Shown: in pieces, positions 16,752 through 50,686 of the stretch
How positions within the stretch are numbered: the first letter of the stretch is position 1
How the letters are laid out: each line of letters begins with the position of its first letter
NCBI GenBank assembly: GCA_964291215.2
Contig: OZ219791.1
Span: 3,232,001 to 3,296,000 of the forward strand
From: Alphaproteobacteria bacterium
Lineage (GTDB): Bacteria; Pseudomonadota; Alphaproteobacteria; MPNO01; UBA830
Reading direction: 5' to 3'
DNA length: 64,000 bases
Position numbers and translations under genes: made by a program
The notes under the pieces: generated by a model
The model's database searches: none
What the model was told of the DNA's origin: nothing
Seen by the model: only the letters and a program-made list of their open reading frames with translations

Positions 16752-17459
16752 TTGTCGAGACAGCCGGAACTGCCATGGATTTTGCTGCCGGGATTGCTTT
16801 GCGATCGCGAGTCCTGGAGCCCGCTCCGTTCCGCGGTGCGGGATGTGTCGGCAATCTGTCCGACCTATCCGGAGGCGTTCGCCGTCGCCGAGATCGCCTC
16901 GACAGTTCTTGAAGCGGCGCCGGAAAGGTTCTTGGTCGCCGGCCACTCAATGGGCGGCTATATCGCTTTCGAGATGCTCCGCCAAGCGCCGGAGAGATGC
17001 GCCGGCCTGTTGCTGATCTCCACGCAGGCAGAAGCGGACACGCCCGAACAGTCGGTGGCGCGGCGGGAGCTGGGCGACCGCGCCCGGCGCGAGGGCCTGG
17101 ACGGAATCGCTGAGTTCATGTCTAATCTGTGTATTCCCAAGACGAGCAACCGCGCCACAGCGCTCCGGCGGCGATTTGCGGCGATGGCGCACCGTTATGG
17201 CGTGGACGCTTTCGCCGCGCATCAGGAAGCCATAGCCGGCCGCCCGTCGAGCGTGCCGGACCTTCCGGGCATAGGCATACCGACGGTCCTGGTCGGCACC
17301 GCCGATGACAGGATCGTGCCGCCGCATCGCACGTTCGCCATGACCGACGCCCTGCCGGCCGCCCAGACTTTGAGGCTCGATACCGGCGGTCATTTGCCGA
17401 TGTGGACGCAGGGCGAAGATTGTATCGATGCTGTACATCTGCTATCGGATAAACTGTAA
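16752..17459 (+). CDS. Alpha/beta-fold hydrolase
   Basis: LLPGLLCD, GHSMGG nucleophile elbow, DDRIVP, GHLP; TTG start after GAGGAG; stop lies in an IS66-type end. Confidence 0.85.
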   Translation: MSRQPELPWILLPGLLCDRESWSPLRSAVRDVSAICPTYPEAFAVAEIASTVLEAAPERFLVAGHSMGGYIAFEMLRQAPERCAGLLLISTQAEADTPEQSVARRELGDRARREGLDGIAEFMSNLCIPKTSNRATALRRRFAAMAHRYGVDAFAAHQEAIAGRPSSVPDLPGIGIPTVLVGTADDRIVPPHRTFAMTDALPAAQTLRLDTGGHLPMWTQGEDCIDAVHLLSDKL

Positions 17460-17740
17460 GCGTTCGTTCGTGCGGTGATCACGATCTGCGCCGAGCTTTG
17501 TTTTGGCGATTGGTAACTGCTCACCTCCTGGTTCCGGCTTGATGTCGGGGTAGAGCAACGAACGGGTTTTCGTGGAGATTTGACACGGCAGACCGATTCG
17601 TTTAGTTGTGGTCATCGAGAACGATGAGGACCGCCGGTGGGCTACTTTGGATGTGAGCGTTCGTTCGTGCGGTGAGGTGTTGTTGTTCTCGTCCGTTTGA
17701 CGGGCTTTTGTCAGGGAGTTCCAGCGTCATCCGGAGCGGT
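17456..17740. mobile_element. Mosaic of IS66-family ends: gtaagcgttcgttcgtgcggtga (17456), left end of the methylase-carrying IS66 (17513-17652), gtgagcgttcgttcgtgcggtga (17653)
   Basis: GTAA/GTGA-type termini; 17513-17652 is near-identical to the reverse complements of 47124-47263 and 50547-50686; right boundary approximate. Confidence 0.75.
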
Positions 17741-45426: not shown

Positions 45427-45799
45427 CCGTTGGCTTGGCGTGGACCGGCGCCTCACCAATCCGGACGGGGTTCTCAGGGCGATCCGGTCCCGTCCAACAG
45501 CGCATTGCAGGCCTGACTCCGAGGCCAGGCCTCGGTTGCCACTACCATTACCGTTGGGAGATTGCACCGCGGTAAGCTGTTGCGGCTCGGGTGTTGCACA
45601 AGTTTTCCCCCTCTGCCCCTCTCGATTCCGCCTAGGAACAGCTTCAGTTCCTTCAACATCAAGCTTATGCAACGCCTTTGTCGGCTTCAAGCCACTATTT
45701 CGCCGTCGCGCGGCATGGACCCTGCTGCACGTTGCGGCTTCGGAACGCAGATGGTCAGGGCGGTTTCACTTCAAGGTCGAACGTATCTACTCACCCCTA

Positions 45800-47005
45800 A
45801 TTGGGTTCTGATTGGTCGTAGTGCTCGTTGATGATGTCTGCGGCTTTTCCGTCGAGGGCGATCTGGGTGGCGACGAGTGGGTTGTAGCCGAGTGCGGCCA
45901 TGGAGGTGAGGTAGCTTGAGCCCCGGCACCATGCTTTTGCGTGGAGCGGAAGCATCCGGACACCTTGACCTTTGCCATCCTGATTTTCTGTTCTCCGGCA
46001 TTGTTGGTGAAGCTGACGTTGGGGTCGTCTGTGAAGCGCAGGTTTTCGTGTTTCACGAGACGTTCGTGCAGGTTGTGCGCGTTTGCGTCCACGTTTTCCT
46101 TTCGGCGGGATGTCGGGCAGTTCCCTGGCGCCCTGATGGTGCGGTAGCGCTTGCGCCCGGCGTCGTTCAGGGTCTTGGATGCGCTCTTGTTGACCTTGTG
46201 GCAGGGAGCAGGCTCTTCATCAGTCGCGCGGTAGCCTCGACGACAAAGGTCAGTTCGCGCAGCAGGTGGCTGCCGCACAACTGGTGGCTACACTGCCATG
46301 TACGAGGCCCAGGACGCCCTTGTAGCACGGGCCGATCTCTTGCCCGCGCTTGCGGTGCGGGAACTTGCACGTCAGGGTCCCACGACATGGAGCCACTTAC
46401 TGTTGATCCGAAATCGTCGACATCGGGCGTTGCAGGAGGTGCGCCACGGCGGCCTCCTCCCATGACGCATCGTGAAAGCATGGCCGAGGCCTCGGAGAGC
46501 TTGATGCCGGAGATCGCCTGCACGAGCGCGACGGCGCAGGGACAGCATCTGGGCGACCAGCAGGTTGATGACGAGGGCTTGGATGCCGATGCCGTACTGC
46601 ACGGGATGTTGTCGGGGAACCGGCCCCGGGCCTTGCACTTCGGGCATTCCTTGATCTCGGCGCGGCGCTCGACGACCTCGAACACGATGTCGTGCGGCGC
46701 TCCCGATCGACGGGGGCGTCGATGTCGGCGCCGCAGGCGTCGCAGGCCGCGACCGTCTCCTCGACGATGGTCTTGCGCAGTTTGTCGCCCATCTGCCGGT
46801 TCGGCTTCGGGCCGTTGCTTCCGGCACGCTTTTGTCCGTCTGTGACGACGGCAGACCGGAGTTCCGGCTCGTGCGTAGTCTTCTCCAGAAGGACGACGAT
46901 GATGATGTCGAGCAGGATGACGAGGACGCGGATCACGGCCTCTTCCGCCACCTTGCCGGCAGCGCCGCGGTCTTGGCCGCTTCGAACTCCTCGCGCGCCG
47001 CCCGT
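45800..47005 (-). pseudogene. IS66 transposase pseudogene
   Basis: CDACG, KECPKC, QYGIGIQAL, HQLCGSHLLREL, FTNNAGEQKIRMAKVK..SGCFRS in several frames; ends approximate. Confidence 0.88.
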
Positions 47006-47010
47006 CGCCA

Positions 47011-47139
47011 TCACCCGGCCTTGCGTTTCATCAGCGCGCCGCCTCCGAGATGCGTTTCCACATACAGATCATGCGGGGGCTGGAGCCCCGGAAGCAGCTG
47101 GCACAGCCCGCTCGTCGCCTTCGATCCAAAGTAGCCCAC
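47011..47139 (-). pseudogene. N-terminal fragment of a Dam/D12-class DNA adenine methyltransferase inside IS66
   Basis: GTG start; GYFGSKATSGLCQLLPGLQPPHDLYVETHLGGGALMKRK matches motif X (Y.G.K) and motif I (Y.E...GGG). Confidence 0.75.
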
Positions 47140-48236
47140 TGGCGGTCCCCGTCGTTCTCGATTACCACCACTAAACGAATCGGCCTGCAGTGTCAAATCT
47201 CCACGAAAACCCGTTCGTTGCTCTACCCCGACATCAAGCCGGAACCAGGGGGTGAGCAGTTACGGTCGAACATTACCTCCGTCGGCGATCTCAGGACTTT
47301 CCGAGTGTTGAGCCGATCCTGCACCTTCTGAACATCTTCGTTGCATGTCGCGCGAAAGTCCGTGCCCTTCGGGAAGTACTCCCGCACCAGGCCGTTGGTG
47401 TGCTCATTCAAGCCGCGCTCCCGGGAATGGAAAGGCGAAGAAGAAATCTGCGTCAAGTGCGACACGCCTGTGGTCTGCGAACTCCTTGCCGTTGTCTGAC
47501 GTGATTGTGTGGACCAATAGCGCACCAGAGCCGAGCAGGCGGATCATACCGACCGTGTCTTTCTGTCCACCCAGCAAGGCGTATTTCGTGGCACGATCAA
47601 CCAGCGACATCACAGCTCCACTGTGAGCTTTGCCGATGATGGCTCCCAGTCGCCGACCCGTTCCTTTGCCTCCGCAGGGCGCTCGGAAATGTCCACCCGG
47701 CCGGAATGGCATCCGCCCTTCCAGTTCGGCTTCTTGCCGCGCCGCCGAAGCTTCAAGACGCCCCCGGCTCTCCGATCTTCGGCGATCATGGATCCGTTCA
47801 CGGCCCTCCAGTCGAAAACGGCCGCTGCTCGGGGCCCTCCCGCAGCTTTTTCTGAGCTTCAACCCGAGGCGTCAACCGCCAGGAAACAAACGAGGCTGCC
47901 CTGCGTTTCTGCCATCCTTTGCGCCTGCTTGTGACGGTAACCCCGTCCCCCGGTGTTGCGCTTGATCTCCCGGAAAATTGTTGATCGGCCCAGCTGCCGA
48001 GCAATCGCACCTTGTGAAAGACCGCTTTTCTGCCTCAATCTGACATCGCTCTTCGTAGGTGACGGTAGCCTTTGGACATGAACAAGCTCCCTTCATCTTG
48101 TAGAGGGGCTCTCGCCGCTACCGCTCCGCAACATCATGCGTCTAAAAACACATGGCCACAGCCCATCATGTGTTGCACTTCACTATGGAACGGGGGTTCA
48201 GAAAATGGAGTGGCATCGGAGTTTTTCAGCAGCCTG

Positions 48237-49730: not shown

Positions 49731-50375
49731 CAAGTTCCCGCACCGCAAGCGCGGCCGGGAGGCAAGAGATCGGCATCATCCCGTGCTACAAGGGCGTCCT
49801 GGGCCTCGTACATGGGCCAGTGTAGCCACCAGCTGTGCGGCAGCCACCTGCTGCGCGAACTGACCTTTGTCGTCGAGGCTACCGCTGGGCGCGACTGATG
49901 AAGAGCCTGCTCCGCGAGATCTGCCACAAGGTCAACAAGAGCGCATCCAAAACCCTGAACGAGGCCGACCTCCGGGCCGTGCGCAAGCGCTACCGCACCA
50001 TCCTCACGCAGGGCGCCAGGGAACTGCCCGACATCCCGCCGAAAGGAAAACGTGGACGCAAGTCCGACGCGCACAACCTGCACGAACGTCTCGTGAAACA
50101 CGAGAAGTCCGTCCTGCGCTTCATAGACGACCCCAACGTCAGCTTCACCAACAATGCCGGAGAACAGAAGATCAGGATGGCAAAGGTCAAGCTCAAGGTG
50201 TCCGGGTGCTTCCGCTCCACGCAAAAGCATGGTGCCGGAGCTCAAGCTACCTCACCTCCATGGCGGCACTCGGCTACAACCCACTCGTCGCCACCCAGAT
50301 CGCCCTCGACGGAAAAGCCGCAGACATCATCAACGAGCACTATGAATCAGAACCCAACAAGGGGTGAGTAGATAC
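49731..50375 (+). mobile_element. IS66 3' half with right IR
   Basis: HQLCGSHLLREL, FTNNAGEQKIRMAKVKLKVSGCFRS; ends ggggtgagtagatac. Confidence 0.88.
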
Positions 50376-50686
50376 TTTCACCGAATAGTCGCACCCGAAC
50401 CCATCCAGCGCTCGCCGGTCGATCCCGATCGAGCGCCGGCGCCTTGCGCTTCATCAGCGCGCCGCCTCCCGGATGCGTTTCCACATACAGATCATGCGGA
50501 GGCTGGAGCTCCGGAAGCAACTGGCACAGCCCGCTCGTCGCCCTGAATTCAAAGTAGCCCGCTGGCGGTCCCCGTCGTTCTCGATGACCACCACTAAACG
50601 AATCGGTCTTCCGTGTCAAATCTCCACGAAAACCCGTTTGTTACTCTACCCCGACATCAAGCCGGAACCAGGGGGTGAGCAGTTAC
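50376..50686 (-). mobile_element. IS66 left end with the longest methyltransferase fragment (50376-50562)
   Basis: Left IR ends at 50686; GYFEFRATSGLCQLLPELQPPHDLYVETHPGGGALMKRKAPAL, then frameshifted IGIDR and ALDGFGCDYSV. Confidence 0.82.

Follow-up and report, generated by a model that had tools for sequence, protein, structure and literature searches.

A decayed IS66-family element and the methyltransferase-fold gene that may act as a self-repressor in its relatives

The IS66-family element at 45783–47263 (minus strand) of the window, the whole 64,000-nucleotide stretch of DNA that was analysed, is a deleted, non-autonomous member of its family. An intact element of this kind consists of a left inverted repeat (IRL), a promoter, a gene for a 219-residue Upf31-like protein, the transposase and a right inverted repeat (IRR). 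We propose, with a probability of roughly 55%, that this gene and its promoter form a portable self-repressor cassette, which would throttle the transposase operon through a palindromic site lying over the promoter. The window adds the decayed end state, in which both the gene and the operator have decayed. That the family represented in the window is a non-autonomous deletion derivative of about 200 copies is a point absent from the first-pass annotation of this DNA.

The ends of the element, located by sequence and by comparison with the family ends, are the IRL at 47248–47263 and the IRR at 45783–45798 (both minus strand), which begin with GTA(A) as expected of the IS66 family. They are flanked by a perfect 8-bp target-site duplication, GGTCGAAC, at 45775–45782 on the right side and 47264–47271 on the left side; repeats and duplication are as the first-pass annotation described them. 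The target is the 3′ end of the transposase of a decayed, multi-copy IS30-like element (47272–48190, minus strand; NF033563, E 4e-14, below the cut-off), a repeat with 43 full-length matches in the genome. Inside the IRL lies a promoter with a degenerate operator remnant (47167–47196, minus strand; TTGACA −35 box at 47196–47191), which retains the AG and TA core bases of TAG-N10-CTA. A consensus promoter scan of 47000–47300 gave 0 sites. The frame reported earlier is present: downstream of TTGACA and preceded by GGGGA, it starts with GTG at 47139, 125 bp inside the left end, and translates to VGYFGSKATSGLCQLLPGLQPPHDLYVETHLGGGALMKRKAG followed by a stop (42 aa; 47011–47139, codons 47139–47014, minus strand). 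By ORF and alignment, it is a 42-codon remnant of the 219-residue Upf31-like, methylase-fold gene, in which an internal deletion fuses codon ~41 in frame to the natural stop. The TGA overlaps the ATG of the transposase, which has the same orientation. The transposase is a pseudogene (45830–47012, low coordinate approximate, minus strand; alignment and profile search) with many short deletions, seen as dozens of short gaps in the alignment with an intact relative. Its best ORF scores 19.4 bits against a Pfam IS66 cut-off of 23.1; a fragment of a neighbouring family copy exceeds this cut-off with 44.1 bits, and the transposases of intact relatives are well over the IS66 family cut-off (NF033517, 243 bits). 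The gene remnant stops ahead of the catalytic DPPY, as had been noted, and the motif is found in full-length copies only. The fragment had been taken for the N-terminus of a methylase; no methylase model in the Pfam and NCBIfam scans matched the 42 residues, which formally counts against that assignment for the fragment, and the full-length copies match below cut-off.

Two other places in the window were thought to repeat the left end together with the methylase gene. Sequence comparison confirms both as left ends of the family, but not as usable genes. The copy at 17513–17652 (plus strand) has the promoter and only five codons, the gene being cut after VGYFG by other sequence. The copy at 50376–50686 (minus strand) has a longer gene remnant, which has lost its start codon and carries a frameshift ahead of the IGIDR stretch; it ends abruptly where a further family copy, represented by its right part and IRR (49731–50375, plus strand), abuts it. 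The 17513–17652 copy is flanked on both sides (17456–17512 and from 17653 onward) by the same short end of another repeated element, which also truncates a full-length family copy on C2. Between 48200 and 49732, there are pieces of a decayed IS256-like (Mutator) transposase with nested end sequences, adjoining the truncated IS66 copy at 49731.

That the gene belongs to the element itself, as the first-pass annotation held, is supported by its relatives. The protein has 2760 homologue clusters. The locus sets are the best 80 of each of the GTDB, metagenome and viral scans, so the linkage counts describe close relatives only. Among the best 80 from GTDB, an intact gene of 219–222 residues is present in 79 of 79 loci, with DPPY in all 79 (located by other patterns), and an IR pair with an 8-bp duplication encloses gene and transposase in 54 of the 79. 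Full-length copies in the order IR, gene with DPPY, transposase and IR were found both in this genome and in GTDB, where they span 2.2–2.6 kb; neither TnpA nor TnpB was seen between the IRs of the GTDB loci examined. Where at least 600 bp of downstream sequence is available, an IS66 transposase follows the gene in 76 of 78 GTDB loci, 65 of 70 metagenome loci and 0 of 78 viral loci (each among the best 80). Three of the five metagenome exceptions were checked and have two IS701-like transposases and one IS1634 transposase. In all 49 non-redundant pairs (from 113 complete ones), the transposase starts on the same strand no more than 33 nt from the gene stop, overlapping the stop in 8 and lying 2–33 nt beyond it in the remainder. 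Gene and transposase co-diverge over these pairs, with a Spearman coefficient of 0.79 between their identities, a value obtained from related sequences and not a formal test. One clade in the transposase tree, which is a quick version, joins a close gene to a transposase only 25–35% alike, apparently the result of a cassette swap. Gene and operator are kept across elements whose proteins are 57–92% alike. On a Sphingobium plasmid (L286 / L288), a homologue is located 200 bp upstream of the ISSp1 (IS1380-family) transposase; the operator site was not found upstream of this homologue, which is not counted here as a cassette inside an IS.

Judged by its sequence, the cassette protein is not Dam, having no target-recognition domain and scoring below the Pfam and Dam cut-offs. 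The full-length copies reach 19.7 bits (E 8e-4) with MethyltransfD12 (PF02086; cut-off 22) and 25.4 bits (E 1e-5) with TIGR00571 (Dam; cut-off 114.85), and some homologues bear a precomputed PF02086 label. Motifs X, I, II and IV are near-invariant among the homologues (DPPY in 122 of 122, HLGGG in 120 of 122). The best PDB sequence match is DpnM (E 2e-4). The cassette protein resembles Dam and DpnM (D12 class, alpha order) in the position of motif I before motif IV, in DPPY and in the Rossmann fold; it differs in the ~60 residues between motifs I and IV, in a His in motif I where Dam-type enzymes have Phe, and in extra C-terminal helices. In the DpnM alignment, the offset is 13 residues at the first aligned block and 104 at the second. 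As this growth falls between motif I and the DPPY block, about 90 residues are missing, and it is here that the recognition domain of DpnM lies. The AlphaFold model (pLDDT 80) has a compact Rossmann core and two C-terminal helices (181–200 and 203–218), and the recognition domain is absent from it. Foldseek gives a TM score of 0.55 to E. coli Dam, with similar E-values to RNA and small-molecule methyltransferases.

The putative operator was defined from 44 non-redundant IS promoters, derived from 155 anchored loci of 159 (4 had no anchor). An inverted repeat, CATAG-N10-CTATG, begins 2 bases after TTGAC and lies between the −35 and −10 boxes of the IS left ends. The TAG and CTA cores are nearly invariant and the spacer is free, with 1.6–2.0 bits per position in the cores compared to 0.0–0.33 in the 10-bp spacer. 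The three inner arm pairs are complementary in 41, 42 and 42 of the 44 promoters; outer pairs are often non-complementary (7 of 44 at one pair), and covariation between the arms is weak (Fisher p 0.053, from related sequences). The second-position adenine of the −10 hexamer and the left-arm adenine are invariant in 44 of 44. The −10 hexamer lies in the right arm, whose conservation is therefore due in part to constraint on the promoter; the conservation of the left arm is not so explained.

A matrix built from the IS promoters only was applied to 37 non-redundant phage homologues and gave 38 matches in the 300 bp upstream of the gene, compared to 0–5 in every other 300-bp bin. By locus, 17 of the 37 have sites (often 2–4 each) and 20 have none at threshold. 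The sites are tied to the 10-bp spacer, as other spacers give 0–8 matches, apart from 21 at a spacer of 15, which we read as stemming from adjacent repeats. Four of six plasmid homologues have sites within 100 bp upstream, and the other two have none at threshold. A matrix derived from IS thus finds sites upstream of phage and plasmid homologues, so that the site follows the protein and not the IS. The window-family operators score −2.4 to −3.4 (the remnant at 47167–47196, −2.4; full-length copies, −2.4 and −3.4), whereas the 44 related promoters score 5.3 to 17.3; the nearest relatives of the window family have the least symmetric arms among the operators. A second IS66 family in this genome has 12 left ends, with the full 219-residue gene and its DPPY intact in 10 of the 12 and an operator score of 17.3. 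The strict operator site occurs 14 times in the 6.15-Mb genome, and 12 of these occurrences are second-family promoters. Phage homologues on viral contigs (L190–L269) can have clusters of 2–4 operator-like repeats upstream, resembling the repeats described for IncP-1β plasmids. Three plasmid homologues (L283, L284 and L285) have a further strong operator-like site in the coding sequence, 160–240 bp past the start, and a fourth (L282) has one just after the stop.

Plasmid matches identify the protein family as Upf31 of IncP-1β plasmids (upf31.0; pBP136, R751, pB3). Upf31 and the IS-borne protein are homologous over their whole length (45% identity over 220 columns, E 2e-65) and share the motifs and the predicted C-terminal helices. 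The Upf31 report (PMC11997246) describes repression of the protein's own promoter from 4.76 to 0.09 XylE units (~50-fold), which is abolished by C-terminal mutations, and proposes that the protein binds the CAGCATCG inverted repeat. Upf31 gave no GATC (Dam-like) protection and no methylation signal by SMRT; for the SMRT assay, the coding sequence alone had been placed in an expression vector, with ER2796 as the host. The report terms the motif order of Upf31 beta, contrary to the DpnM alignment, in which motif I comes before motif IV (alpha order). The upf31 promoter, TTGAC-AG-CATCG-N10-CGATG, has the same geometry as the IS promoters, TTGAC-NN-CATAG-N10-CTATG, differs by one base per arm and scores only 4.4 on the IS-derived matrix. 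Upf31 differs from the cassette gene in being located in the plasmid backbone and not inside an IS, with no transposase downstream, and in having a partner, KorB, according to that report; the IS has no counterpart.

In the proposed self-repressor cassette, the protein would bind the TAG-N10-CTA repeat as a dimer via its C-terminal helices. Gene and transposase would share one transcript; given that all 49 pairs have the transposase start on the same strand no more than 33 nt from the gene stop, a repressor acting at this promoter would throttle the transposase too. Repression would extend in trans to every copy whose operator matches. The repressing role of the IS-borne protein, which we consider likely, is carried over from a relative with 45% identity whose site differs by one base per arm.

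The invariant DPPY argues that catalysis may have been kept and thus against a pure repressor. As the strongest alternative, it is possible, if somewhat doubtful, that the protein is an active adenine methyltransferase specific for the operator, whose dimer would recognise the bipartite site and methylate an adenine in or beside the −10 box, the methylation state gating transposase expression, for example by opening it after replication or on transfer to a new host. The near-invariance of motifs X, I, II and IV and the two adenines invariant in 44 of 44 IS promoters would fit this, and a methylation-gated transposase has a precedent in IS10, whose promoter is controlled by Dam. The SMRT assay of Upf31 lacked the promoter and could have missed an operator signal, as, by arithmetic, no more than about 4 occurrences of the 10-base bipartite core are expected in 4.6 Mb, not enough for a motif to be found. 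However, the Phe of Dam-type enzymes is replaced by His in motif I, no single adenine is common to the IS, phage and Upf31 half-sites, Upf31 showed no methylation of any kind (PMC11997246), and the C-terminal mutations that abolish repression fit simple dimer binding. The first-pass annotation had suggested that methylation gates transposition; the gating survives, more probably through operator binding than through genome-wide methylation.

A wider form of this idea is unlikely. Several unrelated IS families, phages and plasmids would share a portable epigenetic switch, in which a dimer of a methyltransferase without a recognition domain binds and methylates only the 20-bp operator over its own promoter; in IS, it would set transposase output and copy number in trans, and families that lose gene and operator would explode, as in the 212-copy family compared to the 12-copy family, in which gene and operator are intact.

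A Dam-like or otherwise low-specificity DNA methylase, giving protection against restriction or a new methylome, was part of the first-pass annotation and is now very unlikely. The weak matches to MethyltransfD12, TIGR00571 and DpnM, the TM score of 0.55 to Dam, and the occurrence of homologues in prophage-sized viral contigs and conjugative plasmids point in this direction, and recognition-domain-poor non-specific methylases exist in phages. However, every profile score is under its cut-off, the ~90 residues of the DpnM recognition domain are absent, the gene has been lost from most copies in this genome, and a rare 20-bp site fixed over the own promoter would be left unexplained. With Upf31 lacking GATC protection and SMRT signal and repressing its own promoter (PMC11997246), neither the Dam-type assignment nor restriction marking or methylome spread is supported.

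The window family has 212 left ends and 178 right ends in the genome. There are 157 end pairs within 6 kb, and since 107 of these have a target duplication of at least 8 bp, the duplication is not due to chance. The paired copies measuring 1.4–1.7 kb number 112; in the alignment of 112 copies, every one is distinct, and many 5–10 bp deletions are common to several. In a tblastn search with the full-length protein, 137 of 238 matches cover residues 1–40 only. The first gene loss is between two copies of an 11-bp repeat ~450 bp apart and was followed by nested steps; the commonest deletion junctions account for 105, 27 and 15 of the 212 left ends. Copy number is highest and divergence lowest (2.7% compared to 3.1%, 3.8% and 7.7%) in the most deleted class. 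A DETG-coding stretch is retained in 16 of the 112 copies. None of the 2987 long ORFs of the genome is an intact transposase of the family. The copies are therefore non-autonomous and, as their transposase is decayed, are presumably mobilised by a helper transposase in trans. Two copies retain the full 219-residue gene with DPPY. These two genes have a dN/dS of 0.67 (31 differences) between them and 0.26 against the second family, and selection between the two is weak. The family lost the gene through nested deletions between short direct repeats, and its operator has drifted. It is hard to credit that the cassette persists only because it provides the transposase with a promoter and a translated leader, the activity of the protein being useless to the element: the junctions in 105 and 27 of the 212 left ends do retain the promoter and an in-frame leader to the natural stop, and the window family is by far the most numerous, but gene and operator are conserved between diverged elements, the second-family gene escapes the deletions that hit the adjacent transposase region (10 short deletions there and 0 in the gene, P about 0.03), and, as the transposases of the deleted copies are dead, the leader is not now under selection for transposase output.

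An assembly artefact as the cause of the deletions was judged unlikely, as they are nested and common across copies, all 112 aligned copies are distinct and marker completeness is 99%. Deleted stretches are matched by contigs of three further runs, all from one study that may include the source (134 bases exactly; 201 bases with 1 difference and 2 gaps), which makes it probable that the decay is real. A joint that skips the element in two runs was considered as an empty allele and rejected, because the flank is the IS30-like repeat with 43 matches in the genome and other IS30-like copies yield the same joint. Among 401 genomes of the phylum, 14 have a match, with close ones in this genome only; with the left end, 5 of 30 relatives gave weak matches, and the deletion junction was not found among these 30. 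IS66, IS30, IS256 and other IS copies in the genome were seen to have many 5–10 bp deletions, often at short repeats; there is a strong deletion bias on unselected DNA in this genome, with marker completeness at 99%. Several dozen family copies are split at element position ~1242 by inserts mostly of ~1.5 kb, which represent a second element with site specificity or else an insertion passed on within a sub-lineage.

IS elements need to keep their own transposase in check; to our knowledge, few element-encoded repressors of IS are known. The cassette elements resemble transposase-only IS66 elements of the ISBst12 type in their GTAA-type IRs, the 8-bp duplication and a single IS66 transposase, with no TnpA or TnpB seen. 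We take the ISBst12-type subgroup to be defined by the transposase only, with no accessory ORF; the cassette elements differ by the extra gene of 219–222 residues, which precedes the transposase and has a promoter and operator of its own, and the window copy differs in being non-autonomous. A methyltransferase passenger exists in an IS1380-family element. Transporter IS (tIS) are IS with a non-transposition passenger gene inside the ends, as defined in PMC9330008. The cassette elements likewise hold a non-transposition gene between their ends, but this gene lies ahead of the transposase, provides the promoter and appears to have a regulatory role instead of being passive cargo. An example of the proposed mode is Arc, encoded by an accessory gene of IS605-family transposons and shown experimentally to bind the promoter of the element and to repress transposase expression (bioRxiv 10.64898/2026.09.24.754181); it has a ribbon-helix-helix fold, belongs to another IS family and has no methyltransferase fold. 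IS66 elements, passenger-bearing IS, Upf31 and an IS-encoded repressor of another fold are already known. The titles and abstracts searched held no description of an IS66 element with an Upf31-like gene, and prior annotation in ISfinder or subscription reviews is possible; the passages of PMC9296519 consulted hold nothing relevant to the cassette.

If the self-repressor reading is correct, transposase would be limited in a new way, by a methylase-fold cassette that has moved among IS66 lineages, IS701-like and IS1634 elements, phages and plasmids, and thousands of genes labelled ‘DNA adenine methylase’ (2760 clusters) would be reassigned. The common operator gives a family-wide context for the unexplained plasmid repeats of Upf31 and a direct test of the reason for the blank methylation assay of that protein.

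The genome offers a natural contrast between the 212-copy window family, without gene or operator, and the 12-copy second family, with both. Loss of the brake may have favoured a burst in copy number; the contrast fits this as one comparison, a single uncontrolled case, and both families now have damaged transposases. A third IS66 of the same kind is present in two copies (C1:1351300–1353500 and C2:2408300–2410500), with a good operator (9.1), a frameshifted gene and a nearly whole transposase, and is a candidate relative of the missing helper of the window family.
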